In this document: positions 8,042-46,262 of the stretch, piece after piece | How positions within the stretch are numbered: the stretch's first letter is position 1 | Layout: every line of letters starts with the position of its first letter | Assembly: GCA_903912925.1 (NCBI GenBank) | Contig: CAIWJG010000631.1 | Span: 3,004-67,003 of the forward strand | Direction: 5' to 3' | From: an uncultured Verrucomicrobia subdivision 3 bacterium | Lineage (GTDB): Bacteria; Verrucomicrobiota; Verrucomicrobiia; Limisphaerales; UBA8199 | DNA length: 64,000 bases | Program-made: the position numbers and the translations under genes | Notes under the pieces: generated by a model | The model's input: the letters and a program-made list of their open reading frames with translations, nothing else | The model's database searches: none | Told to the model about the DNA's origin: nothing

Positions 8042-11000
8042 TTGCTGCACGAACGAACCAAGTGGGGAGAACATCCAACAACCAACATCGGCCGAACACC
8101 GAACATCGAACATCCAACATCCAACATCCAACGTCGAACATCCAACGGACGATTCCTGCCCCATCAGTGGGTGTTGGGTGTTCGAGGTTGGATGTTAGAT
8201 GTTTCCAGATCGTAATTGGTCTTATTGTGTTGCTCACAGCCGCGGCTGCTAGCCGAGGTGCGCAGCTAGACTTCCCGCCGCTCTGGCAGACCGACCTGCA
8301 GACGTTCCTGGAAAGCTCCGGGCTCGTCGCCGACCTCAAAGGCGACGGCCATGAGCGAGCGGTCATTGCGGGACGCGAGGATATGTTCGCCCTCGACGGC
8401 CAGGGGAAGGTGTTGTGGCGCTGGCGGTCCAAAGGACGCTTTATGACATACCCGGCGGTGCTGGTTCGCCCACCGCAGCCGTCCCTGGTTTACGCAGCGG
8501 ACAACAGCGGCTTGCTTACCTGCCTGGACGGAACGGGCAAGGAGGTTTGGCATGCGAAGTTGAATGCGCCGTCGAGCTGGTCCGCTTCTGTCGTTTGCGA
8601 TCTCAAGGGCAATAACGATGCTGATGTCATTCAGACCGACGAGACGGGCACGGTCTGGGCCTTCGAGGCGTTGACCGGCAAAGTGCTATGGCAGACGAAG
8701 CTCAAGGGCATACCCGTCAGCCCGGCGGTTGGCGACCTGGACGGTGATGGCAAGCCGGAGATCGTGGTGGCTACTGGGCAAGGAATCATCACAGCCCTCG
8801 GCGGCAACGGCACGGTGCTATGGGAGCGGACGATCGGCGGGTCGTCCCAATCCTGGGCCACCGCGGCGCCCGTCATCTTTGCTGGATCTGATGGGCGCGG
8901 TCGCGTGGCGGCTGCCTCAAGCGGCGGCCAACTCGTGTGCCTCGATGGCAAGGGCGAGGTATTGTGGCGCCGTCCAACTCATGGCGCGGCGGCTAGCTCG
9001 ATTTCCGTGGGTGATCTCGACCTGGATGGCCGGGCGGATATTTGTCTGATCACCCAAGCCGGCGTGATCTATCGCTTTGATGAAGACGGACGCGCAATCT
9101 GGGAGATTGACATGCAGGGCCGGAGCCTGGCACCCGGTGCGATCATCGACCTAGACGGCGATGGAAAGCCGGAATACGTGCTTAGCACGCAGGATGGCTT
9201 CTTGCAGGTCCTGAACGAAGCGGGCGAGTTCCTCTACCGCTTCCACTTCAGCAATCGCACAATCAATGTAACGCCAACCTTTGGCAACCTATCGGCGGAT
9301 TCGCCGGGGCTGGAAATGCTCATAACGGGCGGCGAAGCAGGCATTGTGTTCTGCTTACACACGCCGGCGGCAACCAACGCCGTCGCGCAGTGGAAGTCTT
9401 ATCGCGGCGACGTGCGCAACAGCGGTTCGTGGTTTGGCCTGCGGCAGTCGGGCGCGGTCCGGATCTCGCCGGTGAATCTGGCCGCCGATGAGGTGCTGAG
9501 CGGCCAGAGCCTGCGGTTCACGGTCGAGAATCCCCAGACGGAGCGGCATCCGCTCACCGCCACAGCCGTCTGCGTCCGTCCCGACGGCGCGAGGCAGGTC
9601 ACGACCACAACCGTGCTGGGCCGGAGCGGCGAGCTGCTGATGCCGTTGGATGTCACCGCGCCGGGCACCTACCAATTCAGTTGGACCTTGGCCGACGCAG
9701 GCGGGCGCACGCTGGTATCCGGCGGTCGGTCGCTGTTTCTTCAGCCGTTTGCCAACGACCGCGCGCTCGTCACGCGCGCGCTGGCTGCGCTCCGCGCGGC
9801 GGCGGAAGCAACAGATCCAGTGCTTCCACTTTCCGCCACGGCGCTTCGGCACGAAGCGACATCGCTGGAAGAGCGAGCCCGAGCGGTCGCCTCGCTTCAA
9901 GACTCCCTGCCCGGCAGCGGCGTAACCGGTTCGCAGGTCGTCCTGGATAAGTCAGCGGCGCTGGTTTCGCACGCCAAGCGGGCGCTGGCAGTCGCTGGTG
10001 TGATTCACCAGGCGACGGCCCTTGGTCAAGGCACAAGCCTGGTCGCTTTCCAGGGGACGCTATGGGAGAACCGGAAGGTGGACGAACAACTGCCCGCCCA
10101 GGCGGCCAACCCGCTTCGCATCACCCGCAAGGTGGTTCCCGGCGAGCATGAACCGGTCAGCTTGAACCTGTTCAACGTAACCGACCATGAGTTGCTGGTG
10201 CGCGTGCAGTTCCATGCTCTGACCAACGGGGTTGTGGTGGTTCCGCATCGGGCGGTGGGGGTGCCCACGTCTTTGGGTGAGGTCGCCTGGGACGCGATGC
10301 CCGAGTTGGACGAGAGCGGCACGCTGACCATCCCGTCCCTGGCCAGCCGGGAATTATGGCTGGATGTGGACCTGGGCGCCGCGAAACCGGGCAGCCACCA
10401 GGTCAAACTGCGTTTGCAGGCGCTCAACGGCGCGGGCGTGCTGGATGCGCCGACGCATCCTCACTCTGTGCCGCCGCCGGAGACTGCGATTGAAATTACG
10501 CTCCAGGTTGCCGACTTTGCTATGGCCGCGCCGGGTGATTTCCGCCTTTGCACGTGGGCCGCGCCGGAGGCAGCGCAACTGCCCGACCTGCTTGCCCACG
10601 GGAACAATGTCTTCACCGCTTCATTGCCTGCAGCGAAATATGACGCTCAGGGTCACTTGGCCGCGTCTGACTACAACGCGCTGGACCCGGTGTTGAGCAG
10701 GCTGCGAGGGAAGGATGTGGTGCTGATGTTGATGGGGATTCCCAGCCTGCACGGCGAATCCGGCAGCGCGGCTTATCGAGGCGACTTGAAGATATTCCTG
10801 GATGAGCTGGTGACACACATGGCGGGGGCGGGCTTCGATATAAAGCATTTTGCGCTGTATCCGTTTGACGAGCCGGGCGGTGTCGGTTGGACGCTGGTCA
10901 ATCCACTAGTCGAGTTCGGGAAGCAGGTCCGCGCGATCAACCCCGACCTGATGCTGTATGTGGACGGCGGGGGCGAGCTTCCCATGTTCCAGGCGATGGC

Positions 11001-11920: not shown

Positions 11921-13360
11921 ATGAGAACAGTCATTTCCCGCAGAGTCAACATTGCGGCAGCCGTCTGGCTCGCGGCCCTGTACGTCGGCACGCAAAGAGC
12001 TCCCGCTGCCCCTCCCGCCGCGGGTCAAGCCGTGCCGATCCCCCTGGAGCAACTCGGCGCCGTGGCTGGCAGACAGTATCGGGGCGACGGCTTGGCCGTT
12101 ACCGCCACAGCCGAGCAGCTCACATTCAGCGACACGGACTGGTTCAGCTTGGGGCCGGGGGTGAACGGTGCGGTCAATGCGCTGGCGGTGTCGGGCAGCA
12201 ACCTGTATGTGGGAGGCCAGTTCACCTCGGCGGGCGGCATCAGTGCCAGCAACGTGGCGAAGTGGGACGGGAACACGTGGTCGGCTTTGGGGTCGGGGGT
12301 GAATGGCTCTGTCGGCGCGCTGGCGGTGTCGGGCAGCGACCTGTATGTGGCGGGTGCGTTTACCACGGCGGGCGGCAGCAACGCAAATTACGTGGCGAAA
12401 TGGAACGGGATCGCATGGCTGCCCTTGGGCTCGGGACTGGGCTACATGATACCTGTCGAGCACTTTGCGCTGGCGGTGTCGGGCAGCAACTTTTTCGCTT
12501 GGCCTTTCTGCGTTGCCATCCTTCCGGGCGGCCAGATTATTTGTGATGTGGCGAATTGGAACGGCAGCGGGTGGTCGGTGCTGGAGCCGGGATTGAACCT
12601 CTGCCCCCTGGTGGTATCGGGCAGCGACCTGTATGGGAGTAGTTCGTTCAACTTTCCGGGCGGCGAACGTGGAGGCTATGTGGCGAAATGGGATGGCAGC
12701 GAGTGGTCGGACTTGGGGTCGGGTGTGTTCGGCTCGATCAATGCCTTGGCGGTATCGGGCAGCGAAGTGTACGCTGGCAGCACGTACTTCTTTCCGGACG
12801 GCCACAGTTATCCATATGTGGCGAAATGGAATGGCAGCGAGTGGGCGGTTTTAGGGTCAGAGGTGGGGGTTGGCAGCACGGTCAATGCGCTGGCAGTGTC
12901 GGGCAGTGACCTGTATGCGGGCGGCAACTTCACCACGGTGGGCGGCAGCAGCGCAAATTGCGTGGCGAAATGGGACGGGAGTGTGTGGTCGGCTTTGGGG
13001 TCGGGGGTGGGTGGCCTGAGCAATTCCTGTGTCTTTGCAATGGCGGTGTTGGGCAGCGACCTGTATGTGGGAGGCTGTTTCAGCACTGCTGGCGGGAAGC
13101 CGTCCGCTTATGTAGCCAGGGCGCACATCGGCCCGGCACGCGGCAGACTCACCAACTGTCTCAGTTCACCGGTCACCGGGTTCAGTTGCACCTTCAGTGA
13201 CGGCTCGCTCGGCCAACCCTACCGCATCCAGACCTCCCCTTCACTGGCAGGTGATTCTTGGACCGACCTCACGAACTTCACTTACGCCGGGCCAACCATC
13301 ATTACCGACACCTCCGCCGTCTCCACGACGAACACATTCTATCGCGCCGTCACACCTTGA
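11921..13360 (+). CDS. Secreted 7-repeat beta-propeller protein (~46-aa ALAVSGS.LY.GG.F...GG....VAKWDG..WS.LGSG repeats)
   Basis: Signal peptide MRTVISRRVNIAAAVWLAALYVG. Seven tandem repeats are visible in the peptide, with near-identical DNA blocks such as gcgctggcggtgtcgggcagcgacctgtatgt. C-terminal beta-sandwich-like tail ends in FYRAVTP. Confidence 0.85.
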   Translation: MRTVISRRVNIAAAVWLAALYVGTQRAPAAPPAAGQAVPIPLEQLGAVAGRQYRGDGLAVTATAEQLTFSDTDWFSLGPGVNGAVNALAVSGSNLYVGGQFTSAGGISASNVAKWDGNTWSALGSGVNGSVGALAVSGSDLYVAGAFTTAGGSNANYVAKWNGIAWLPLGSGLGYMIPVEHFALAVSGSNFFAWPFCVAILPGGQIICDVANWNGSGWSVLEPGLNLCPLVVSGSDLYGSSSFNFPGGERGGYVAKWDGSEWSDLGSGVFGSINALAVSGSEVYAGSTYFFPDGHSYPYVAKWNGSEWAVLGSEVGVGSTVNALAVSGSDLYAGGNFTTVGGSSANCVAKWDGSVWSALGSGVGGLSNSCVFAMAVLGSDLYVGGCFSTAGGKPSAYVARAHIGPARGRLTNCLSSPVTGFSCTFSDGSLGQPYRIQTSPSLAGDSWTDLTNFTYAGPTIITDTSAVSTTNTFYRAVTP

Positions 13361-32514: not shown

Positions 32515-33159
32515 TCACCGCAGGAATTTTGCCACGGCCGCCGCCTGCGAGTGCACCTGCAGCTTTTCGTAAATGCGGCGCAGGTAGGTTTGAATGGTCG
32601 TAGCGCTGAGGCCCAGATCCACCGCCACTTCTTTGATCCGTTTGCCATGAGCAATCAGCGTCAAGACTTCGACTTCCCGTTCCGTCAGCAGGTTGGCTTT
32701 GGCCGAAGGTTTAGCCTGGCCGTGAAACGACTCGACGACGCGGCGCGCGATGACCGCGGACATCGGGGAGCCGCCCTGCACCACCAATTGAATTCCCTCG
32801 ACGATCTCGGCTGGCGTGGCCGTCTTCAACAAGTAACCGGCGGCCCCCCCTCGCAAGGCCGCGAAGACCAGGTCGCTGTCCTCCTCAATCGTCAACATGA
32901 CCACCTGGCCAGCCGGGCATAGCCGCTTCAGTTCACCCGTGCATTCGATCCCCGACATCCCTGGCAGATTCAGATCCATCAGGACAACCGCCGGCGCTGC
33001 CTTCGGGATTTCGCGCAGCGCTTCTTCGCCCGTGGCGTACATGCCGACGCATTCAATGCCGGGTGTCAGATCGAGTATAGCGGCCAAGCCGCGGCGAAAA
33101 GCCACTCGGTCTTCAACAACAGCAATACGAATCGGACTGGGCGGGCTGGAGGGATTCAT
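32515..33159 (-). CDS. NarL/LuxR-family response regulator
   Basis: Receiver domain IRIAVVEDR...VVLMDLNLPGMSG. HTH domain LTEREVEVLTLIAHGKRIKEVAVDLGLSATTIQTYLRRIYEKL. Confidence 0.95.
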   Translation of the reverse strand: MNPSSPPSPIRIAVVEDRVAFRRGLAAILDLTPGIECVGMYATGEEALREIPKAAPAVVLMDLNLPGMSGIECTGELKRLCPAGQVVMLTIEEDSDLVFAALRGGAAGYLLKTATPAEIVEGIQLVVQGGSPMSAVIARRVVESFHGQAKPSAKANLLTEREVEVLTLIAHGKRIKEVAVDLGLSATTIQTYLRRIYEKLQVHSQAAAVAKFLR

Positions 33160-33181: not shown

Positions 33182-36067
33182 CTAAGTTTGATGCAGAGGC
33201 ATTAGAATGGAAACCGAGGTGCCGGTGCCAGGTTTCGTCGTAATCTCCAGCGACCCACCAACCTGCTGGACGCGCTCGCGGAGGTTCTGCAAGCCGCTGC
33301 CCGCGATGGTTCGCGCTGGATCGAAGCCGCGCCCGTCGTCTTTGACGGTGAGGTTCAGTTGCCCGTCGTTCAGTCTTAAGCCAACGGTGACCTCGCGCGC
33401 CCCGGCATGTTTGGCAACGTTGGCCAGCGACTCCTTCACCACGGCCAGCAATTCATGCCGCACGCGAGCGGGCACCTCAACCGAACTTTCGCCGGCGGGC
33501 AAGTCCAGCCGGCATTCCAGGCCGGCCGCCTGACAAAATCGTTCGGTCAATTCGCCGATGAACGCTACCAGGCTGCCGGTGTTGTCGCAGCGCGGATTGG
33601 TCGTCCACGCCAGCTCGCGCAACTCGTGCGCCAGCGACCGTGTCTCGCCGGCCAGGCTCTCAAGCTGCCCGGACGCAGCGCTGCCGCGGCGCTGAGCGGC
33701 CTCGAGCTGCAGCGCCAGGCCGGTGAGGCTGGCGCCCAGGTCGTCGTGCAGATCCCGGGCGATACGAGCCCGCTCTTCCGCCAGTACGGTGACCTGCTGG
33801 GCGCGCAGGGTGCGCCCTTGCCAGCGGAGCCGGTAAGCTTGCACGCCCCCTGCGGTGCCGATAACGAGCGCGGCGCACAGGACGTAAAAGGCCCACGTTT
33901 CGTAAAAGTGCGGCGCAACGTAAAACGAGAACTGCTCGCCTTGCTCGTTCCAAACGCCGTGCGAGTTGCAAGCCGCGACGCAGAAGGTGTAGTCGCCGGG
34001 GCGGAGGTTGGTATAGAACGCCACCCGGCGGTTTTGGTCATCCTCAAGCCAGTCCGCGTCGTAGCCCTCGAGCCTATACTTGAAGCGCACCCGCTCGGGC
34101 GCCGCGAGACTGTCGGCCGTGTAATGAATTTCCAGCACCCGCCCCCGCCCCGGCCTGATCTGCATTCGAGGTTGGATGTTCGATGTTGGATGTTCGATGT
34201 TCTTGCCCCCGCCCGCGCATCCATCCCCAAACACCACTTCCCCATTCGCCCGCACCTGCTCAATCACCACCGGCGACGCCAATTCCGCGCTCTGCATTTC
34301 CTTGGGATCAATCATCACGACGCCCTGCACAGTGGGAAACCAAATCCGCCCCTGCTGGTCCTTGCAACCGGCGGGCTGATTGTCCCCGCCATTGCACTCG
34401 CTGTTCAGCATCCCATCGGCCTCCCCGTAAGCGGTGCACTCCACCCTGGCCCGCCGCCCGGCCGCCACCTCGTTCAGTTGCTGCCGCGAAATGCGGTAAA
34501 TGCCGCGCAACCCGCTCAGCCAAAGATAGCCGAAATCATCCTCCTGGATGTTATTCACCACGTTCTCGCCCAATCCCTGCTCCTTCGTGAAGGTGAAGAA
34601 CCGCCGCTCGTTCTCCCCCGCCTGCCCATTTCTACTTTCTGCTTTCTGCTTTCTGCTTTGTTCAGCCCCTGCGGGCACAAACCGGTTCAGGCCGTCCTCC
34701 GTGCCCACCCAGAAAACCCCATCAGTGTCCTCATGAATCCACCACGCACGGTTATTGTGCTCGCCGCGGTTGGTTTTGTAGGCCGTGAATCTTCCATCCT
34801 TGAGGCGATTCAGCCCGCCGCCATAAGTCCCAAACCACATGTCCCCACGCCGGTCCTGATAGATAGCGCGCGCGTCACCGTGAGAAAGCCCCTGGTTGGT
34901 GGAATAGCTGCTCCACTGCTCACCATCCCGGCACAGCACTGCGGTCCTGATGCCAAGCCATATCCGGCCCTGCCGATCCTCGAACAGAGCCTTAAGGTCC
35001 TGCCCATCCCCTATTTCTCCCGGGGCGGGCAGCATCTGCCATTCCCCGCCTCGGAAACGCGCCAAGTGAGGGCCCGGCCAGGCTACCCATACCGCGTCGT
35101 GCCGGTCGGCCAGGAACACCCCGATCCGGCCCCACTCCCTGCCCTCCTGCGGGGCTTTCACATTCTCCACTTTCCCTGCTCGAATGCCGCTGAGGCCCGC
35201 GGCCGTCCCCACCCAACTCGTGCCGTCGGTGCCCTGGGTGACCGCTTGCGTGTCATCGTTCCGCAACCCCTCACGCCGTGAATACGCTCTGATCCGCTTC
35301 GGCTCCAACCGGAACAGCCCGGTCGTCGTCCCCACCCAAAGATCCCCTTCGCGATCTTCCAGCACGCGGGTGACATTCAGATCCTCGGGAAACTCAGGCG
35401 CCGCAAAAGGCTCCAGCCGCCCCTGAATCAGCCGGTGCAAGCCAGTGTGGCCGCCCTCGAGACGACGAGTGACCCATACCCGGCCATCGCTGGTCCGGCA
35501 AATCCGCTGTTGCCAGGGCCTTGATTCCAGGCCCGCGCTCGCCACCACTGTCCAGACGCCCTTGCTGCCCCGCCAGATGCTGGTGCCGGTGCAGAGCCAG
35601 AGCGAGCCGTCGGCCGCCCCAAGAAACGAAAAGCACGACGAGAGATCCGTGGACGGCACCTCCGGCGGGCTGAGCGAGGTCAACGACTTCGTGTTCAAAT
35701 CCAGCCGCTGAAGGCCACCCCCTACAGCCGCCCCCCCGAGCAGGACCAGCAGTCGTGAGGAACTCTCCTCGCCCAACTGCCTTACAGGATACTCACTGCC
35801 CGCCGAACCGAACGTCCAGGTTTGCACCCGCCCCCCGCGCGCCAGCGCCACCCGGCCTGCCTGCGGCGAGAACCAAACGCCGCCCGCCCGAGCCGCGCAG
35901 AGCGGACCAACCGGATCAGTCACCCCCCCTTCCGCCTCATAGCGCTCGAACCGATGATCGCGGTAATACAACAAGCCGTCGCCGGCACCGATCCACAAGC
36001 TGCCATCCTTCTGGTCCACCGCCAGATCGTTAAAACCGTTCCCGACACCGTGCCATCGCTCTTCCAC
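33182..36067 (-). CDS. Sensor histidine kinase: Reg_prop beta-propeller repeats + Y_Y_Y + TM + HisKA_3 + HATPase_c (5' end apparently displaced by a frameshift)
   Basis: Repeated DG.LW.GT..GL motifs. Y_Y_Y segment RPGDYTFCVAACNSHGVW. TM segment WAFYVLCAALVIGTAGGV. H-box ARIARDLHDDLGASLTGL. ATPase segment DDGRGFD...GSGLQNLRERV. The track ORF starts at a GTG directly after a TGA and has no N-terminal signal or TM segment. Confidence 0.9.
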   Translation of the reverse strand: MEERWHGVGNGFNDLAVDQKDGSLWIGAGDGLLYYRDHRFERYEAEGGVTDPVGPLCAARAGGVWFSPQAGRVALARGGRVQTWTFGSAGSEYPVRQLGEESSSRLLVLLGGAAVGGGLQRLDLNTKSLTSLSPPEVPSTDLSSCFSFLGAADGSLWLCTGTSIWRGSKGVWTVVASAGLESRPWQQRICRTSDGRVWVTRRLEGGHTGLHRLIQGRLEPFAAPEFPEDLNVTRVLEDREGDLWVGTTTGLFRLEPKRIRAYSRREGLRNDDTQAVTQGTDGTSWVGTAAGLSGIRAGKVENVKAPQEGREWGRIGVFLADRHDAVWVAWPGPHLARFRGGEWQMLPAPGEIGDGQDLKALFEDRQGRIWLGIRTAVLCRDGEQWSSYSTNQGLSHGDARAIYQDRRGDMWFGTYGGGLNRLKDGRFTAYKTNRGEHNNRAWWIHEDTDGVFWVGTEDGLNRFVPAGAEQSRKQKAESRNGQAGENERRFFTFTKEQGLGENVVNNIQEDDFGYLWLSGLRGIYRISRQQLNEVAAGRRARVECTAYGEADGMLNSECNGGDNQPAGCKDQQGRIWFPTVQGVVMIDPKEMQSAELASPVVIEQVRANGEVVFGDGCAGGGKNIEHPTSNIQPRMQIRPGRGRVLEIHYTADSLAAPERVRFKYRLEGYDADWLEDDQNRRVAFYTNLRPGDYTFCVAACNSHGVWNEQGEQFSFYVAPHFYETWAFYVLCAALVIGTAGGVQAYRLRWQGRTLRAQQVTVLAEERARIARDLHDDLGASLTGLALQLEAAQRRGSAASGQLESLAGETRSLAHELRELAWTTNPRCDNTGSLVAFIGELTERFCQAAGLECRLDLPAGESSVEVPARVRHELLAVVKESLANVAKHAGAREVTVGLRLNDGQLNLTVKDDGRGFDPARTIAGSGLQNLRERVQQVGGSLEITTKPGTGTSVSILMPLHQT
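34168..34202. repeat. Half-copy of the H1/H2 7-mer array inside the kinase CDS
   Basis: gaggttggatgttcgatgttggatgttcgatgttc is translated on the minus strand as GKNIEHPTSNIQP, in frame, within the kinase. Confidence 0.85.
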
Positions 36068-36408
36068 AGTTCATATCCGCTACTTTCTTGATAGGCGGTA
36101 AAGATGATATTGGTCCGCAAAAGCTTGAATTCGGTAATATAGCCACCGCTTCGGGTTTGATTGATATCTTTGAGCAGGAAGGGGTTCGGCAGACCTTGCG
36201 ACAGCATCCCCAGGGCCGGCAGCATCCAAAGGAGGAGCACCGCCCAGAAAGAAGTGCGCGCGCTTCTTGAACCTCTCCCGGTGGAGTTTTCCTGGCTTGT
36301 GGACGCGTCCACCGCTGCCTGCGGTTCGGGTATCGCAAGCTGTGCACGGTTACAAAGCTCGCCCTTGTCACAACCTGGTGACCGCTCAAGCATTTCTTTT
36401 GATTTCAT
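35920..36408 (-). CDS. Membrane-anchored ELWxxDGT-repeat fragment; probable frameshifted 5' part of the sensor kinase gene
   Basis: TM segment FWAVLLLWMLPALGML, then LLKDINQTRSGGYITEFKLLRTNIIFTAYQESSGYELWKSDGTVSGTV (ELWxxDGT repeat). The remainder of the ORF is out-of-frame reading of the kinase 5' region (overlap 35920-36067). Confidence 0.5.
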   Translation of the reverse strand: MKSKEMLERSPGCDKGELCNRAQLAIPEPQAAVDASTSQENSTGRGSRSARTSFWAVLLLWMLPALGMLSQGLPNPFLLKDINQTRSGGYITEFKLLRTNIIFTAYQESSGYELWKSDGTVSGTVLTIWRWTRRMAACGSVPATACCITAIIGSSAMRRKGG

Positions 36409-36447: not shown

Positions 36448-38331
36448 TCAGGGCTCCAAGAGCGCAACCCGGGATGCAAGGTGCAATCTGAAGGTTCCCC
36501 TCGTCACCAAGGGCGTCTTGTGCAAACCATAAATGGTTTCGGTGTAGCTGCCTCCAATCCGGTTGTCTCCCCAACCGGACAAATTCTGACTGACCAGGTC
36601 AGGATCGTCAGCCGAGAAGATAAGGGTGATGGCCCGGTTGATGGACCACGATTCGGCGGTGTAGGTCAGACCAGCGCTGTTGGTATGCGGGAGCAATGGA
36701 TTGCGTTCCGGGCGGTCGTCCCGGTTGTCGTGGTCGGGATGAAAGCGATGCACAAACGGGTTGAGCGAGTCGTCGAATGGCAGCGGCACGATGCAGGCAA
36801 GTTGATTGCCGGCATCGCCAAAGCCAGTGCCGTTCATAGGAATCGTGCCCCGGAACCCGAACGCGGCCGAACTGAACCTGCGAGCCACCGCAGTGCCATC
36901 TCGCAGCGCCGCACCCGCGAACTGCCCAACCCGGTTATCATCGGTCAGCAGCACGAAGCGCCCCGGTCGGTCCACCACGAGGTTTGTCGTCCCGTCCCCG
37001 GCCGATTTGTAAGTGCCGGGCGACCATACCTGGAGGATCTTCTGCAGCAGCCTGGCCTGGCCGCTGGCGTCCAGATGCACCATCAGCCGGAACGAGAATT
37101 CGGAGGCAGTGGGCACCGGTTCCGCGGGGTTACCCGAGCCAGGCTGATTGACCTGATTGATAGTGGCCGTGCCGACCCAGAGGCCGGCGCGCGGGGGCGT
37201 CGTGGCCGAGGCGGCCATCAGTGAACGTCCTCCCGCCAAGGCAGCGGAAGCGCTCTGGGGGCCGTAAGCGGAAACCGGAACAAGCGCGCGGGTGCCGTTT
37301 GCACTATCGGTGATTTCCAGCAGGGACTGATAGAGGCTATCGGTGGCGCCTGAGGGCGGCGTGAAAGCCGCCATTTCCCGGCGGCGCACCTCCAAACGGA
37401 GATCCCAGATGCCGCCGGGCGGCAGGTTCGATTGGACCACGCCTGAAAAGGTGATCCAGCCCACGTTGGTGAACACCGAGGAGTTCCGCCAATAACCCAT
37501 CGGCACGGGGCCAGCCAAAGCGATCCCGGAAGTGGCTGGCGGATTGGTCGAGGTCAACGGACGGATGCTAATAACCGTCGAGTTCGTGGAGACGTTACGG
37601 ATGCGGATGGTCTGCTCGGTGAGGATGCGCCCAAATTCCAACCCGGCGTGTCGATCGGTTTGGACTTCGATGGGTCCCGAGTAAGCCGGCAGTCCCCGGG
37701 TACGAGTCCAGAAGGCTTCGCCGCGTTGCATGGCCGTGGTACCCGGGCTGGTGACGCGTTGCCAGGAGCCACTGGTGAGAAGGCGGTATAGGTTGGTTTC
37801 CGAGAGCGCGCTCGAATACGAGCAGAAGGTGCGGTAGGTGGGTGGGCTCGCGGAAGGAAGAGGCGCGCCCACAAAGTTGTAGGAGTCGCGCAACCACTCG
37901 ATGGATCGTAACACCGGCTTGCCCCGAACATTCCAAGTGTTGGTGGGGGCGTTGTCAGCCATTTTGATGAGGTAGGGACGCCCGCCTTCGAGGAAATGGA
38001 GACTGGTCTGGTCCGTCAAAGGGTTACTTGGCGGCACCCAGGTCAACCAGTCCGGCTGGCTGATGACCAATTCATTTGGGTCGGCGATGAACTGCACCAC
38101 TGCCTGCCGATGGTTGTAGCGCCACACACTCTCGACCGGCAGGGAGGCGAAAGCGACATCGCAGTCGGCGGCGTCGGGCTGGACTTCCAGAAAGATCGCA
38201 TTCCAGCCAGGCCGCAAGGTGATCGGTTGATCAATCCATTGCGCAACGACCGAGCGGGCGCTAAAACCGAGCAGCCCAAGTGCCAGTGAGGGCATTAACA
38301 AGGACTTCCAAAGCTGACGGAAAGTCTTCAT
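36448..38331 (-). CDS. Secreted hypothetical protein (627 aa)
   Basis: Signal peptide MKTFRQLWKSLLMPSLALGLLGFSARSVVAQ. The ATG overlaps the upstream stop (ATGA 38328-38331). No family recognised. Confidence 0.8.
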   Translation of the reverse strand: MKTFRQLWKSLLMPSLALGLLGFSARSVVAQWIDQPITLRPGWNAIFLEVQPDAADCDVAFASLPVESVWRYNHRQAVVQFIADPNELVISQPDWLTWVPPSNPLTDQTSLHFLEGGRPYLIKMADNAPTNTWNVRGKPVLRSIEWLRDSYNFVGAPLPSASPPTYRTFCSYSSALSETNLYRLLTSGSWQRVTSPGTTAMQRGEAFWTRTRGLPAYSGPIEVQTDRHAGLEFGRILTEQTIRIRNVSTNSTVISIRPLTSTNPPATSGIALAGPVPMGYWRNSSVFTNVGWITFSGVVQSNLPPGGIWDLRLEVRRREMAAFTPPSGATDSLYQSLLEITDSANGTRALVPVSAYGPQSASAALAGGRSLMAASATTPPRAGLWVGTATINQVNQPGSGNPAEPVPTASEFSFRLMVHLDASGQARLLQKILQVWSPGTYKSAGDGTTNLVVDRPGRFVLLTDDNRVGQFAGAALRDGTAVARRFSSAAFGFRGTIPMNGTGFGDAGNQLACIVPLPFDDSLNPFVHRFHPDHDNRDDRPERNPLLPHTNSAGLTYTAESWSINRAITLIFSADDPDLVSQNLSGWGDNRIGGSYTETIYGLHKTPLVTRGTFRLHLASRVALLEP

Positions 38332-39176
38332 GGTTGGATGAAAAGGTTGTAAAATAAAGGCCCGGACGAAGGGGTGTTGGTGTCAAGAAAGCTATTCATG
38401 GGCGGGGTGCCCGCGATATTGCTGCGGATTATGCTGAAACTGCCAGGCAGTAAAGTGGCCGAGCGCAGCAGGGTGTAGGAGCGACCTTCGGCGCTATTCC
38501 ACTGAACTTCGAATCCGCCCTGGGGTTGACGGGAATACTTGATGAAGTGGAATACCGAGTTGGGGTCGTTGGGATCGGTACCCGCAATGAACTCCTGGAG
38601 GTTGGTCATGCCATCGCCATCTTCATCGTCACCCGGCCGGTGGCCAATGCCGCCAAAGTAAAGGTCTTCCCACCAGTCGCACAGCCCCAAGCCGTCCGAG
38701 TCTTGGCACGGGGCGTTGATCAAGAGATCCACTCGCTCGATGACGCCGCGGTTTCGGGCGGCGAGGGATGTGGCGGCCTGGCCTGGAGTCGCGAAGGAAA
38801 CCTGCAGGCCATCCAGGGTGACCTGCGAGCGGTCGTACGTTAATGAGGAGGGAAGCAATTCCAGGGAGTTGCTGGAAACCGACGCCCCGGAGAGAACCGT
38901 TTCGCAAGGCACAAGCAGTAAATACGAGAACTGCCCCGACACGTTGCCGAGGGTGTTTGTCAGGGTGATAGTACGCCCCGTATCCTGTCGGCGGAATCGC
39001 CAAATAAGGGTGCCGGAAGTGATGCGAGCGTTGTATGCTGCTGTGTTACGGATCATACCGTAAAGAACCAAGTTGGGTTCGGGGAGACCCTCGCTCCATC
39101 CGATCTGGCAGAGCATGGAGAGCCCCAGTAACAAGGCGTGTGGGTTGGCTGAAAGAAGGCTGGATGGCGTTTTCAT
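38328..39176 (-). CDS. Secreted hypothetical protein with thrombospondin-type-3-like Ca-binding motif
   Basis: ATG 39176 gives MKTPSSLLSANPHALLLGLSMLCQIGWS. Motif GDDEDGDGMTNLQEFIAGTDPNDPNS. C-terminal FEVQWNSAEGRSYTLLRS beta-sandwich-like tail. Confidence 0.8.
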   Translation of the reverse strand: MKTPSSLLSANPHALLLGLSMLCQIGWSEGLPEPNLVLYGMIRNTAAYNARITSGTLIWRFRRQDTGRTITLTNTLGNVSGQFSYLLLVPCETVLSGASVSSNSLELLPSSLTYDRSQVTLDGLQVSFATPGQAATSLAARNRGVIERVDLLINAPCQDSDGLGLCDWWEDLYFGGIGHRPGDDEDGDGMTNLQEFIAGTDPNDPNSVFHFIKYSRQPQGGFEVQWNSAEGRSYTLLRSATLLPGSFSIIRSNIAGTPPMNSFLDTNTPSSGPLFYNLFIQP

Positions 39177-39499
39177 AGAAGTTTGAGTTTCAGGTGACGA
39201 GCCGGGTTCTCGACCCATTTTGGAGAACAAAGGGGACTGCTTTCGTGAAAAAGGTGTGTTCTTGTCCTTGCCAGGCAGGGGGACACAAATTCCCGCAGCG
39301 ACTCCTGGCAATTATGCTCCCGCGCTGCGTCGAACCGTTCCAACGCGAGAGCGGTAAGGCTCACGAGCAATCGGGTGAAGCTGGCGGTTTCCTCGCCGCT
39401 GTTGCCCGCCGCCGACAGCACCAGGTTGACCGGCAGGCACGGTCTTTCTTCGCTTGGTGACCCGAGTGGTCGCTCGGCAAGCTGATCAACAGACATCAT
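39173..39499 (-). CDS. Possible small leader protein (~108 aa), unknown function
   Basis: Its TGA overlaps the ATG of the next gene (ATGA 39173-39176). The central part has GC-rich third positions. The 3' third contains regulatory-looking motif A, and the start (ATG 39499/39496 or GTG 39523) is unclear. Confidence 0.35.
   Translation of the reverse strand: MMSVDQLAERPLGSPSEERPCLPVNLVLSAAGNSGEETASFTRLLVSLTALALERFDAAREHNCQESLREFVSPCLARTRTHLFHESSPLCSPKWVENPARHLKLKLL
39221..39293 (-). promoter_or_regulatory. Three-box palindromic motif, copy A (GAGAACAAAG / GTTCTTGTCC / GGGGACACAAA)
   Basis: tggagaacaaaggggactgctttcgtgaaaaaggtgtgttcttgtccttgccaggcagggggacacaaattcc aligns without gaps with copy B over the first 47 nt (about 34 of 47 identical by hand count). 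Lies ~45 nt upstream of ATG 39176. Confidence 0.55.
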
Positions 39500-39546
39500 G
39501 CGGTTGGTTCTACCATCTGACACCCAGGCTCCGGTAGTCTCATTCT

Positions 39547-39614
39547 AGAGGACAAAACGGGGTGGTTTTATGAAAAAGGGACGTTTTTGTCCCTCATTTA
39601 GGGGACAAAACGCG
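39547..39614 (-). promoter_or_regulatory. Three-box palindromic motif, copy B (GAGGACAAAAC / GTTTTTGTCCC / GGGGACAAAAC)
   Basis: tagaggacaaaacggggtggttttatgaaaaagggacgtttttgtccctcatttaggggacaaaacgcg. Boxes 2 and 3 form a near-perfect inverted repeat with a 7-nt spacer. Lies just upstream of the small ORF start. Confidence 0.6.
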
Positions 39615-39731
39615 CTCTTGGTGGCTCACAGCGAAGACACCAAAGCGCGAAGGGGTGATGAAAGGTACTAAATTACAAAGCTAGTGAGATCAAAGCTTTG
39701 CGCTCCCCATCGGATCGCCGGCAGACCAACA

Positions 39732-39763
39732 CCATAGCGCCCCCATAGCGCCCCCATAGCGCC
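39732..39763. repeat. 11-bp tandem repeat ccatagcgccc x3
   Basis: Three consecutive units at 39732-39742, 39743-39753 and 39754-39763. An inverted partial copy ggcctatggcgctc lies at ~39804. Confidence 0.9.
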
Positions 39764-39837
39764 TGGCTTGCTGCAAAGCGCCCCTCTATTCTGAGTTGAG
39801 GGCGGCCTATGGCGCTCTGCTGGCAGGGTGGATTCGG

Positions 39838-41292
39838 TTATTTGGCCCGGTAAGCAGGGTTTGGCTGTGGCAACTGCGCCCCCACTTCCTGCCACCAGGC
39901 ATGGAGGCGCGCACGGAGCTGGGCGGCACGCTCAGGTTGCGCGGCGGCCAGGTCGTGCTTTTCGCCGGGGTCGTCGCGCAGGCTGTAGAGTTCGACATGG
40001 TTGTCCTCGAAGTATTCCAGCAGTTTCCAGTCGCCGCAGCGTACCGCACTGACGGGGGTGGTGGTGGGGTAGTAATGAGGGTAGTGGAAGAAGAGCGCGT
40101 CGCGCGGGAGACTGGCGCGTGGCTGCTTCAGCAACGGGACAAGGCTGAGCCCGTCCAGCGGCTGCAGGGGCGCCGGTTGACTAGAGCCGCTAAGGCCGCA
40201 TAGCTCGCGAATGGTGGGGAAGAAATCCGTGCAGAGGACCGGTTCGTCACAAGTGGCGCCCGGAGGCGTGACGCCCGGCATGCGAACGATCAGCGGCACG
40301 CGGATGCCGCCCTCATAGAGGGAGCCCTTGCCGGAGCGCAGAGGGAAATTGTCGGTCACCTGCAGGCCCCGGTTGGTGTTGACGTAGCCCCCGTTGTCGG
40401 ACGCAAAGATCACCAGAGTGTGGTCGGCCAGACGGCGCTGCTCAAGTTTGGCCAGAACGCGCCCGACATTCTCATCGAGGATTTGGACCATCGCGGCATA
40501 GCCGGGGTTCCGATGATGCAGGCCCGGTTTGAGTTTGCTCTGGTAGTGTTCCACCAACCGCGCCTTGCCTTCGATCGGTGTATGCGGAACATGGAAACAG
40601 AGGTTGAGAAAGAACGGGCGATCCCTCGCCTCATCGATCAGCTTCAGCGCCTCATCCGTGAGCCGATCGTCCAGGTAATCGCCGGGCTTGCCCAAGCCGA
40701 GTCCCGGCACGTAGCGGAACTCGCCCGCGCTGCCGGAAGGCCCGCGAAACGGATAAAAATAGGTCGCGGGCGCACCCCAATGAGTGCCGCCGATGTTCAG
40801 GTCAAAACCCTGCGTCTCGGGTGAATGGGCGGCGTCGCCGAGGTGCCACTTCCCCACATGAAACGTGAGATAACCCGCGCCCTTGAGGACTTCGGCGGTG
40901 GTCACCTCGCTGGCAGGCAAATCAGCGATGGCCGGGGGCGGCACGAGCGGCTGGTCGTGTGGAACCCCGAGGGCTCCCTCTCGCCAGATCGTGTAGTGGA
41001 GGCGGGCGGCATGCCTGCCGGTGAGGATGGCAGCGCGCGTGGGCGAGCAGACCGGCATGGCATAAGCCTGGGTGAACCGCACCCCCTCCCGCGCCAACCG
41101 GTCGATATGCGGGGTCTCATGCAGGTCGGCCCCGTAGCAGCCCACGTCGCTCCAGCCCAGATCGTCGGCGAGGATGAATACCACGTTGGGCGGACGAGCC
41201 TCGGCAAAAGCCAAATGGGGAGCCAGCATGACCAAGGCCCCAAAAAGAATCCATCGCCAGCCGAGCCTTGTCTCCATTGCGTTGAATCTCAT
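39838..41292 (-). CDS. Arylsulfatase (formylglycine-dependent, Cys-type)
   Basis: PNVVFILADDLGWSDVGCYG and the FGly motif CSPTRAAILTGR. Signal peptide present. Confidence 0.95.
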   Translation of the reverse strand: MRFNAMETRLGWRWILFGALVMLAPHLAFAEARPPNVVFILADDLGWSDVGCYGADLHETPHIDRLAREGVRFTQAYAMPVCSPTRAAILTGRHAARLHYTIWREGALGVPHDQPLVPPPAIADLPASEVTTAEVLKGAGYLTFHVGKWHLGDAAHSPETQGFDLNIGGTHWGAPATYFYPFRGPSGSAGEFRYVPGLGLGKPGDYLDDRLTDEALKLIDEARDRPFFLNLCFHVPHTPIEGKARLVEHYQSKLKPGLHHRNPGYAAMVQILDENVGRVLAKLEQRRLADHTLVIFASDNGGYVNTNRGLQVTDNFPLRSGKGSLYEGGIRVPLIVRMPGVTPPGATCDEPVLCTDFFPTIRELCGLSGSSQPAPLQPLDGLSLVPLLKQPRASLPRDALFFHYPHYYPTTTPVSAVRCGDWKLLEYFEDNHVELYSLRDDPGEKHDLAAAQPERAAQLRARLHAWWQEVGAQLPQPNPAYRAK

Positions 41293-41354: not shown

Positions 41355-41578
41355 GAGGCCCCCGGGGCTGCTCTAAAGTCCGGCCAGTTGAGGGAAGATC
41401 CTGTTCTGCAGCCCTGAAATCCGAAGACCGAAGGCCGAAATCCGAATTCCGAGAATGGCCTGATTCGATTGGCTGCTGCTCCGCCGGGGTGGCTATCAAT
41501 TCGGACCTCGGCCTTCGGATTTGAGCACTGCTCGCTGGGAACGGGAGGACCTTAGAACAGCCCTGGGAGGCCCCTGCC
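41355..41578. repeat. Hairpin element H4 (shares the outer module with H1 and another module with H5)
   Basis: 41371-41446 matches 1134-1209 at 74 of 76 nt (hand count). Inner palindrome aaatccgaagaccgaaggccgaaatccgaattc...gaattcggacctcggccttcggattt. The right module 41527-41565 is the reverse complement of 46059-46097. Confidence 0.85.
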
Positions 41579-46038: not shown

Positions 46039-46057
46039 GCGCCCCTGGGGCCGGAAC

Positions 46058-46262
46058 AGGGCTGCTCTAAGGTTCTCCCGTTCCCAGCAAGCAGTTCCCT
46101 GTAGGCCGCGTGCCCCCACGCGGCGTTCGGGCTCAAATCCGAAGCTCGAAAACCGAAAAGGGCCAGCCACCCTGGGGGCGGTGTTTCGGTGTTTCGGTAT
46201 TGGGTGTTGGATGTTTCGGTGTTTCGGTGCTTCGGTTTTCGGATTTAGTCAGAGCGCCCCCG
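46058..46262. repeat. Hairpin element H5 (ggtgtttc 8-mer arm; shares a module with H4)
   Basis: The left module gggctgctctaaggttctcccgttcccagcaagcagttc equals the reverse complement of the H4 right module at about 35 of 39 nt (hand count). aaatccgaagctcgaaaaccgaaa pairs with cttcggttttcggattt. Right arm ggtgtttcggtgtttcggtattgggtgttggatgtttcggtgtttcggtgcttcgg. Confidence 0.8.

Follow-up and report, generated by a model that had tools for sequence, protein, structure and literature searches.

A three-box palindromic element upstream of a small open reading frame in an uncultured Verrucomicrobiota bacterium and its partial duplicate ahead of a secreted-protein operon

Introduction

The closest described systems to the element reported here, a palindrome (boxes 3 and 2) followed by a third box (box 1), are class I sigma-70 promoters, paired operators, NarL/LuxR binding sites, transcription attenuators and short dispersed repeats. 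The element occurs in one complete copy (unit B) and one partial copy (unit A) in a 64,000-nucleotide (nt) stretch of DNA from an uncultured Verrucomicrobia subdivision 3 bacterium (contig CAIWJG010000631.1, positions 3,004 to 67,003), hereafter the window. Unit B lies ahead of a 108-amino-acid (aa) open reading frame (the small ORF), and unit A ahead of an operon of two genes encoding proteins of 282 and 627 aa, the first of them secreted. Uncultured Verrucomicrobiota are major polysaccharide degraders, and to our knowledge almost nothing is known about gene control in these bacteria.

At class I sigma-70 promoters, such as that of lac with its CRP site, the activator binds near position -61.5. 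The element resembles these promoters in having a palindrome of 16-20 bp, AT-rich at its centre and placed about 62 bp ahead of the predicted start, together with a poor or absent -35 region and a -10-like TAnnnT hexamer; it differs in that the -10 is imperfect in some members of its family, the start site is predicted and the factor putative. Its additional half-site, about five helical turns (53 bp) away, is reminiscent of paired or auxiliary operators placed on the same helix face. Known NarL/LuxR sites include 7-2-7 heptamers, 20-bp lux-box palindromes and the DosR box GGGACnnnnGTCCC. The inverted and direct heptamer-like half-sites of the element, a LuxR-type gene in the gene string of the window and a GGGAC-N6-GTCCC sequence in unit B recall such sites, whereas the spacing is 7-10-7 (unit B) or 7-13-7 (unit A) instead of 7-2-7, GGGAC...GTCCC is missing from unit A and from the other family members, and the regulator adjoins the operon in this strain only. 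The half-sites TTTGTCC and, in related loci, TCTACCT match no operator consensus known to us.

In attenuators such as the bgl/sac overlaps of ribonucleic antiterminator (RAT) and terminator and the pyr and trp leaders, a middle segment pairs either upstream or downstream. This is also the case for the middle box of the element, and in family members with TCTACC-type boxes a U-run follows the downstream pairing. In contrast to attenuators, the window lacks a U-run after box 1, what would be the "antiterminator" is always the more stable structure and the terminator loop would span ~30 nt; moreover, the element shows no leader peptide logic and has no known binding protein, and in unit A the upstream partner is missing. 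Repetitive extragenic palindromic (REP) sequences, bacterial interspersed mosaic elements (BIME) and miniature inverted-repeat transposable elements (MITEs) share with the element a short imperfect palindrome in intergenic DNA that is present twice here; the element differs from them in that its only two copies reside at one locus, without terminal inverted repeats or target-site duplications.

Results

A repeat search of the window aligned positions 39216-39267 with 39541-39592, at a spacing of 325 nt, over 52 nt without gaps and with 38 identical positions (73%). In 300 dinucleotide-type shuffles of the region 39000-39900 the best 52-nt gapless match reached 27.8 identities on average (standard deviation 1.06) and 32 at most, compared with the 38 observed; the duplicated unit proposed in an original prediction made from the DNA letters alone is thus real. 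The box sequences quoted there are present at their positions, as is a core identical in both copies, TGAAAAAGG at 39246-39254 and 39571-39579. The boxes of unit B are exact heptamers GGACAAA/TTTGTCC (39550, 39586 and 39603), of which the whole window contains only nine on both strands together, and each heptamer of unit A carries one mismatch (39225, 39261 and 39281). Because clusters of three heptamers with one mismatch are common by chance, with about three per shuffle, the unit A boxes are meaningful only via their alignment to unit B. From box 2 to box 1 the units align without gaps, with a spacer of 29 nt in each, and box 3 is displaced by a 3-nt insertion or deletion between them. A local DNA comparison confines the similarity around the two units to the 52 nt. 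A duplicated gene 5' end, with the small ORF and the 282-aa gene as paralogues, was rejected, as there is no protein similarity. The codons that follow the ATG of each unit encode EPG (GAR CCY GGS, with three third-position changes); this match is post hoc, its alignment is ambiguous, and it is not used as support.

An exhaustive phmmer search with the 108-aa ORF as query yielded 21 representatives. Genuine relatives are ORFs of 97-186 aa with the core LLTVNLVLPAAGNSGEE.ASFTRLLFGLTALALERFGAA.EN.CQDALRE.VPS.LAGVPVDPFDGQLLRF..AD.GYQLHSIG, the tail motif of which we take to be like the C-terminal motif of GspG-type pseudopilins, a likeness that profile searches did not confirm; Pfam and NCBIfam gave zero matches for the family. 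One candidate, P0125, was rejected as a homologue: it is a translated 55-nt satellite of a 10-Mb contig, so its protein-level resemblance is spurious. Another, P0122 (4991 aa, 18 matched stretches), was left out by analogy with P0125 alone and is probably spurious as well.

Reading the DNA on the contigs of seven small-ORF homologues (L087, L090-L093, L095/L096 and L097) revealed the three-box architecture upstream of the small ORF in seven of seven loci. On the evidence of these alignments, unit B is one of a small, previously undescribed family of ~75-95-nt elements in uncultured Verrucomicrobiota; a literature search returned no relevant report of such elements. Members are located 40-110 nt upstream of the small ORF, with the element end ~40-45 nt before the start codon, and in non-coding intergenic DNA at every family locus. 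Their common layout comprises a near-perfect palindrome (box 3, a 6-10-nt AT-rich centre and box 2), a conserved middle CCyTTTT...CGAAAG and a third box, box 1, that repeats box 3 about 53 nt downstream and is directly followed by a TAnnnT-like hexamer. A typical TCTACC-type sequence reads (A/T)TCTACCT-GAAATC-AGGTAGAAGAAC-CCCCTTTTGGGCGAAAGAATCTGACG-TTTCTACCT-ATTTTT-AGGGATACCC...CAGATGAGAGAATC..ATG. Unit B can be aligned over its full length with the seven other loci, leader CAGATGGTAGAACC included, and has the family order of boxes 3 and 2, middle, box 1, hexamer, leader CAGATGrnAGAAyC and small-ORF ATG. A covariance model matches it at 39527-39620 (68.5 bits, E 9.5e-15), compared with 83-109 bits for the other members.

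The boxes read TTTGTCC/GGACAAA/TTTGTCC here and TCTACCT/AGGTAGA/TCTACCT in the seven other loci; therefore, all three change in concert, and the loop AAAT at the palindrome centre and the element middle are conserved despite this change. Box 3 and box 2 pair at 84%, with four pairs changed on both sides, box 2 and box 1 at 86%, with two such pairs, and nearly all of this covariation stems from one lineage split, namely this window versus the rest. Across the eight elements, which are 65-85% identical and originate from several samples and projects, architecture, centre and leader are conserved. Boxes 1 and 3 of unit B, 53 nt apart, form an internal direct repeat together with their flanking bases, of 14 nt in the repeat search and ~22 nt by eye (CGTTTTGTCCyCTA(G)AATGAG). 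The hexamer TAGAAT overlaps ATG 39543-39541, the start of a 15-codon upstream ORF that ends in an ATGA overlap with the small-ORF start. Two strain variants of the locus, L085 (99.2% identical, harboring both units) and L086 (~98% identical), have TAAAAT in place of TAGAAT in unit B, with every box unchanged.

Upstream of the TCTACC-type elements lie 8-nt tandem repeats, CTTCGGAT/TTTCGGAC, in three to five copies (L087 1-120, L092 1-33, L093 48-126 and L095 1540-1598), followed by a C/T-rich tract, TCCTCCACCCTCCCC; L087 also carries GATTACT repeats.

Unlike unit B, unit A is missed by the covariance model and matches the family order from box 2 onward only. Of 24 tblastn alignments with the small-ORF family, 14 end at 39269, as do the blastn matches; this is one or two bases short of unit A box 2 (39267), which places a sharp junction at 39268/39267. 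The last 30 residues of the small ORF are therefore a translation of unit A, in agreement with the original view that copy A falls inside a putative small ORF. The box 3 assigned to this copy (TTTGTGTCC) needs correction, as it lies in sequence homologous to the small-ORF family and not to the element; the small-ORF homologue in L092 has GAATATGTGTTT at this position, and the box 3 of unit A looks fortuitous by sequence. Since this pseudo-box 3 lies in ORF-family sequence, unit A is a partial copy fused to about codon 77 of the small ORF. As judged from these alignments, this partial duplicate covers the element from box 2 to the ATG; it took the place of the small ORF's 3' end and is now situated immediately before the 282-aa/627-aa operon. 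It is located 41 nt before ATG 39176, and its own ATG (39218-39216) is in frame with the 282-aa gene. The start codons named in the original prediction, ATG 39176, GTG 39523 and ATG 39499, are where it had put them. Coordinates of all features are compiled in Table 1.

Table 1. Positions of the two units, their parts and the surrounding genes in the window.
Feature	Position	Strand	Sequence or remark
Unit B, three-box element	39541-39611	minus	GTTTTGTCCCC-TAAATGA-GGGACAAAAAC-GTCCCTTTTTCATAAAACCACCCC-GTTTTGTCC-TC-TAGAAT-G
Unit B box 3 (TTTGTCC)	39603-39609	minus	left arm of palindrome/hairpin
Unit B box 2 (GGACAAA)	39586-39592	minus	right arm; complementary to boxes 3 and 1
Unit B box 1 (TTTGTCC)	39550-39556	minus	third box
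Hexamer TAGAAT (-10-like)	39542-39547	minus	2 nt after box 1
Central motif CCTTTTTCA	39571-39579	minus	invariant between units; unit A copy at 39246-39254
Unit A, partial copy from box 2 to ATG	39216-39267	minus	GGACAAGAAC-ACACCTTTTTCACGAAAGCAGTCCCC-TTTGTTC-TC-CAAAAT-G
Unit A box 2	39261-39267	minus	
Unit A box 1	39225-39231	minus	
Unit A hexamer CAAAAT	39217-39222	minus	
Pseudo-box 3 of unit A (TGTGTCC)	39281-39287	minus	small-ORF coding sequence, codons E-F-V-S
Three tandem 11-nt repeats	39732-39764	minus	GCGCTATGGGG (minus strand), CCATAGCGCCC (plus strand); ~120 nt upstream of unit B
Sulfatase gene	39838-41292	minus	
Small ORF, 108 aa (116 aa from GTG 39523)	39173-39499	minus	stop overlaps ATG of next gene as ATGA
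282-aa secreted protein gene	38328-39176	minus	directly 3' of unit A; pairs with 627-aa gene
627-aa conserved hypothetical protein gene	36448-38331	minus	motif HxYHPDHDN; query for orthologous loci
Reg_prop/Y_Y_Y histidine kinase gene	33182-36067	minus	
LuxR-type response regulator gene	32515-33159	minus	

The element is probably a regulatory region, and we tentatively read it as a promoter-operator on the strength of its layout. The palindrome would bind a putative dimeric transcription factor, with its centre ~61-63 bp ahead of the predicted start, 7 nt after the TAnnnT hexamer, similar to a class I activator site. Box 1 would act as a third half-site in the spacer beside the -10, and the missing -35 consensus would fit a factor-dependent promoter. 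Through duplication of the core, as unit A, the secreted-protein operon further downstream would have acquired a promoter of the same type. Several features are consistent with this reading. The symmetry of the palindrome reaches almost to its centre (CTACCTGAAATCAGGTAG in four loci, one base off in two more), and such deep central symmetry is found in protein operators. Box 3 and box 1 are spaced by 53 bp in unit B and in L087, corresponding to ~five helical turns. Of 10 copies of the hexamer after box 1, judged by eye, 8 carry A as the second base and all carry T as the sixth; the hexamer is separated from the start codon by 34-43 nt in unit A, unit B and the family. Unit A retains exactly the portion from box 2 to the hexamer, which fits a promoter-operator. 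The significance of the repeat, the shared family architecture, the concerted box change, the TAAAAT of strain variants with intact boxes, the intergenic position at every family locus and the want of a stable RNA hairpin in unit A likewise count in its favour.

Other observations weigh against it. A consensus scan found a full sigma-70 promoter on the gene strand in no member, with CGAAAG/TAAAAC in the -35 region, and the hexamer has TG instead of TA in two family members. No regulator gene is consistently linked among the family contigs, which are mostly 0.7-5 kb long, and half-site spacing varies between types (7-10-7 in unit B, counted as heptamers). A conserved loop combined with a changing stem is seen more typically in RNA hairpins than in operators. 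Essentially a single lineage split underlies the concerted change of the boxes, and gene conversion or templated repair in quasi-palindromes could be an alternative source of it; given the internal direct repeat of unit B, homogenisation at the DNA level may explain part of the change. Covariation also has no power between an operator and an RNA structure, because two palindromic protein sites automatically give alternative pairings and three-way change. A promoter of the extracytoplasmic function (ECF)/AlgU type was rejected: GAAC-N19-TCTGA fits the TCTACC-type members by eye, and TCTGA is missing from both window copies.

Folding calculations bear on an explanation that we regard as rather doubtful, namely that the element is a structured 5' leader RNA of the minus-strand transcript in which box 2 pairs either with box 3, forming a stable hairpin with an AAAU loop, or with box 1. 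The TCTACC-type box 2:box 1 helix with its U4-5 could terminate transcription; in the window this helix would mask the region 5' of AUG 39543 or 39218, and the switch would be set by a putative factor on the hairpin loop or on box 3. By folding energy, each of the two units can form either pairing (-16.0 and -12.7 kcal/mol in unit B, -8.5 and -8.8 kcal/mol in unit A), which bears out the proposal that the central box can pair with either flanking box, and the unit B hairpin amounts to -15.3 kcal/mol (z -3.6). The covariation of three boxes around an invariant AAAT loop also agrees with a leader RNA. Upon removal of box 3, most members have the box 2:box 1 pairing as their minimum-energy fold, and in the seven TCTACC-type loci a U-run comes after it; two substitutions in unit A keep this pairing via G-U pairs that are valid only on the minus strand. 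However, the alternative pairing never exceeds the box 3:box 2 hairpin in stability, so that switching would require a factor. Neither window copy has the U-run after box 1, TAGAAT and CAAAAT being found there instead; the box 2:box 1 helix encloses a 29-31-nt loop atypical for terminators, and an A-C mismatch occurs in L093 on the minus strand. Unit A lacks both an authentic box 3 and a stable fold (z +0.5 to +0.95).

A short GGGAC/GUCCC stem with a U5 run, which the original prediction had noted, can be recognized by eye in unit B (GGGAC-AAAAAC-GUCCC-UUUUU); yet it is private to this unit, has no equivalent in unit A and does not appear in the terminator scan; at that position the other members carry CCC-UUUU-GGG. 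The terminator scan found a canonical terminator in no member. A search of Rfam 15 gave nothing relevant at E<=5 in 38000-41000, nor at E<=1 in five family loci, and CsrA sites were rejected as well.

Judged by its substitutions and its predicted fold, the small-ORF family is weakly constrained. Its dN/dS (the ratio of nonsynonymous to synonymous substitution rates) is 0.4-0.7, differences by codon position amount to 1.25:1:1.5, the copy in L090 is frameshifted, and an AlphaFold prediction based on a 7-sequence alignment yields a single helix with a predicted local distance difference test score (pLDDT) of 52. Such weak constraint would also be expected if the arrangement were a neutral by-product, in which illegitimate recombination or duplication joined a truncated small-ORF module before the 282-aa operon, unit A is decaying and the palindromes are kept by DNA homogenisation. 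We consider this scenario unlikely. It draws further on the sharp junction at unit A, on the internal direct repeat of unit B, on the degenerate second element copy after the small ORF in L097, and on a hand count according to which the boxes (12/14) are not significantly better conserved between the units than the spacers (26/38). Conservation of architecture, centre and leader across the eight elements of the family nevertheless speaks against neutrality; units A and B, although 27% diverged, differ by no more than one change per box, and strain variants at 0.8-1.6% divergence leave the boxes untouched.

The L097 copy (1093-1154) begins 9 nt after the small-ORF stop and is 79% identical to L091 7-67, an arrangement that mirrors the unit B, small ORF, unit A order of the window. 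Element copies thus flank the small ORF in two independent loci, as they would if the palindrome were the core site of a tyrosine-type site-specific recombinase, with inverted arms, a 6-8-bp spacer and a third arm as in FRT, and the copies bracketed the small ORF as a cassette. The inverted 7-9-bp arms around an asymmetric 6-nt centre (GAAATC), the direct orientation of the third arm and the position of the unit A junction at the spacer/arm boundary, beside a box-3-like sequence, would suit such a site. Nonetheless, we judge this very improbable. No recombinase is encoded among the genes examined around the locus (no recombinase-domain scan of the entire window was made), the small ORF and its downstream gene constitute a conserved pair in most loci instead of a cassette, and neither empty-site nor excised forms appear among the strain variants. 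As its left arm is not a true one, unit A does not correspond to what recombination would normally produce. Related candidates were rejected as well: an integron attC site by eye, as ACAAAAC and GTTTTTG do not fit RYYYAAC/GTTRRRY; a diversity-generating retroelement, the differences between units A and B not being adenine-specific and a reverse transcriptase being absent; and an inverton, as only 29 nt separate the inverted boxes.

The small ORFs of L087, L091 and L093/L090 are followed by genes of a single family, which encode secreted, partly immunoglobulin (Ig)-like proteins unrelated to the 282-aa protein. An identical 129-aa small ORF, P0132, is present on eight contigs and apparently in two neighbourhoods, one with GH31 genes upstream and hut genes downstream, the other with a Tn3-type DUF4158 fragment upstream; the analysis covered the DNA of one of these two contexts. 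There are hints that the small-ORF module is multi-copy or mobile in some genomes.

Within the window, a third copy was found by none of four approaches, that is, pattern search, a hidden Markov model (HMM) of the two units, a sequence-independent three-box search and the covariance model. Pattern scans detected no element in viral contigs and, in Joint Genome Institute (JGI) metagenomes, only the strain variant L085 of the same locus and one chance match (L084). Relatives of the 627-aa protein number in the hundreds, in Verrucomicrobiota and other phyla, and through them 80 loci (L004-L083) were fetched; among these, the 282-aa/627-aa gene pair is conserved across Verrucomicrobiota. The 80 loci contain, upstream of the 282-aa orthologues, no small ORF, no heptamer triplet and no match to the HMM or the covariance model. 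The boxes are therefore not conserved upstream of orthologous operons, where the original prediction had suggested looking for them, and the element is not tied to that operon. With two copies at a single locus and no more in the window, the 80 loci or the viral scan, a dispersed repeat of the REP or MITE type was rejected. The notion of a locus-specific cis element accordingly survives in part: the element is genuine and not a dispersed repeat, but its kind is shared with the small ORFs of other contigs, which carry other boxes.

The minus strand is the coding strand for every gene around the repeat. The 282-aa protein shows a weak TSP3 repeat match, under the Pfam cut-off. The 627-aa family, which lacks a Pfam domain, extends to more than 555 loci in Verrucomicrobiota, Hydrogenedentota, Thermoanaerobaculia, Lysobacterales and others, with the motifs HxYHPDHDN and GWGDNQLGG. 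In the closest orthologous loci, L004 (2185-4668) and L005 (1793-3410), the 282-aa/627-aa pair is found just downstream of mobile-element-like genes, which by eye from the translations comprise an 827-aa ATPase like a conjugative coupling protein in L004 and integrase-like and excisionase-like genes in L005.

The adjacent LuxR-type regulator, which the original prediction had suggested for binding assays, is beside the operon only by a strain-specific rearrangement, and nothing ties the histidine kinase/response regulator pair to the element. This pair is missing in 79 of the 80 orthologous loci and present in the distant L044 only; the window arrangement also occurs in L001-L003. Strain variant L085 departs from the window at 36036, where a gene with ELWxTDGT propeller repeats follows the 627-aa gene (L085 3700-5802). 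A 162-aa ORF of the window (35920-36408) keeps only the start of this propeller gene before entering the kinase out of frame, and the predicted N-terminus of the kinase (MEERWHGV) is propeller-gene-start DNA in another frame. The kinase gene is probably 5'-truncated, and from the comparison with L085 the adjacency of kinase and LuxR gene therefore reflects a strain-specific deletion or rearrangement. A TTGTCC/GGACAA cluster near the kinase/regulator pair of L044 was rejected as unrelated, since it consists of two tight hairpins (GCGGACAA..TTGTCCGC). The palindromes GCGGACAATCTTGTCCGC and GCGGACAAGAATGTCCGC in L044 (4240-4300) directly follow a LuxR-type gene and form hairpins without a T-run.

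Further repeats accompany the locus. Between the sulfatase stop and unit B, the three 11-nt repeats are perfect or near-perfect, their period corresponds to one helical turn, and they resemble arrays of response-regulator sites; related GCGC(T/A)nTGG motifs, some inverted, lie nearby (39774-39784 and 39800-39824), and L085 carries one single-nucleotide polymorphism within the array (39735). Dispersed repeats unrelated to the element include an 88-nt direct repeat (1128-1215 versus 41365-41452, 94% identical), one copy of which lies upstream of the sulfatase gene, a 35-110-nt repeat (1224-1333, 8095-8206 and 34164-34202) with one copy inside the kinase gene (peptide EHPTSNIQ), and the pair 41527-41565 and 46057-46095. 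Self-matches of 64-78% identity over 160-850 nt at 12148-13095 probably reflect a repeat-domain gene.

Discussion

The finding is an incremental addition and not a new principle. Were the element a new class of structured 5' leader RNA in Verrucomicrobiota, it would be a three-segment switch with the AAAU loop as ligand or protein contact, controlling operons of a small pseudopilin-tail-like ORF and a large secreted protein and co-opted here for a second operon by partial duplication. We deem this improbable. Between the promoter-operator reading that we tentatively prefer and a leader RNA, the joint change of the three boxes offers a way to test, as it would reflect either a matching set of regulators or the self-pairing of an RNA.

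The element marks an operon family that pairs a small ORF with a secreted protein, and the locus described here is a clean example of a probable regulatory region copied before another operon. If functional, the element would provide uncultured Verrucomicrobiota with a compact and recognisable control region, composed of a palindrome and a third box, whose box sequence varies between paralogous or orthologous modules.

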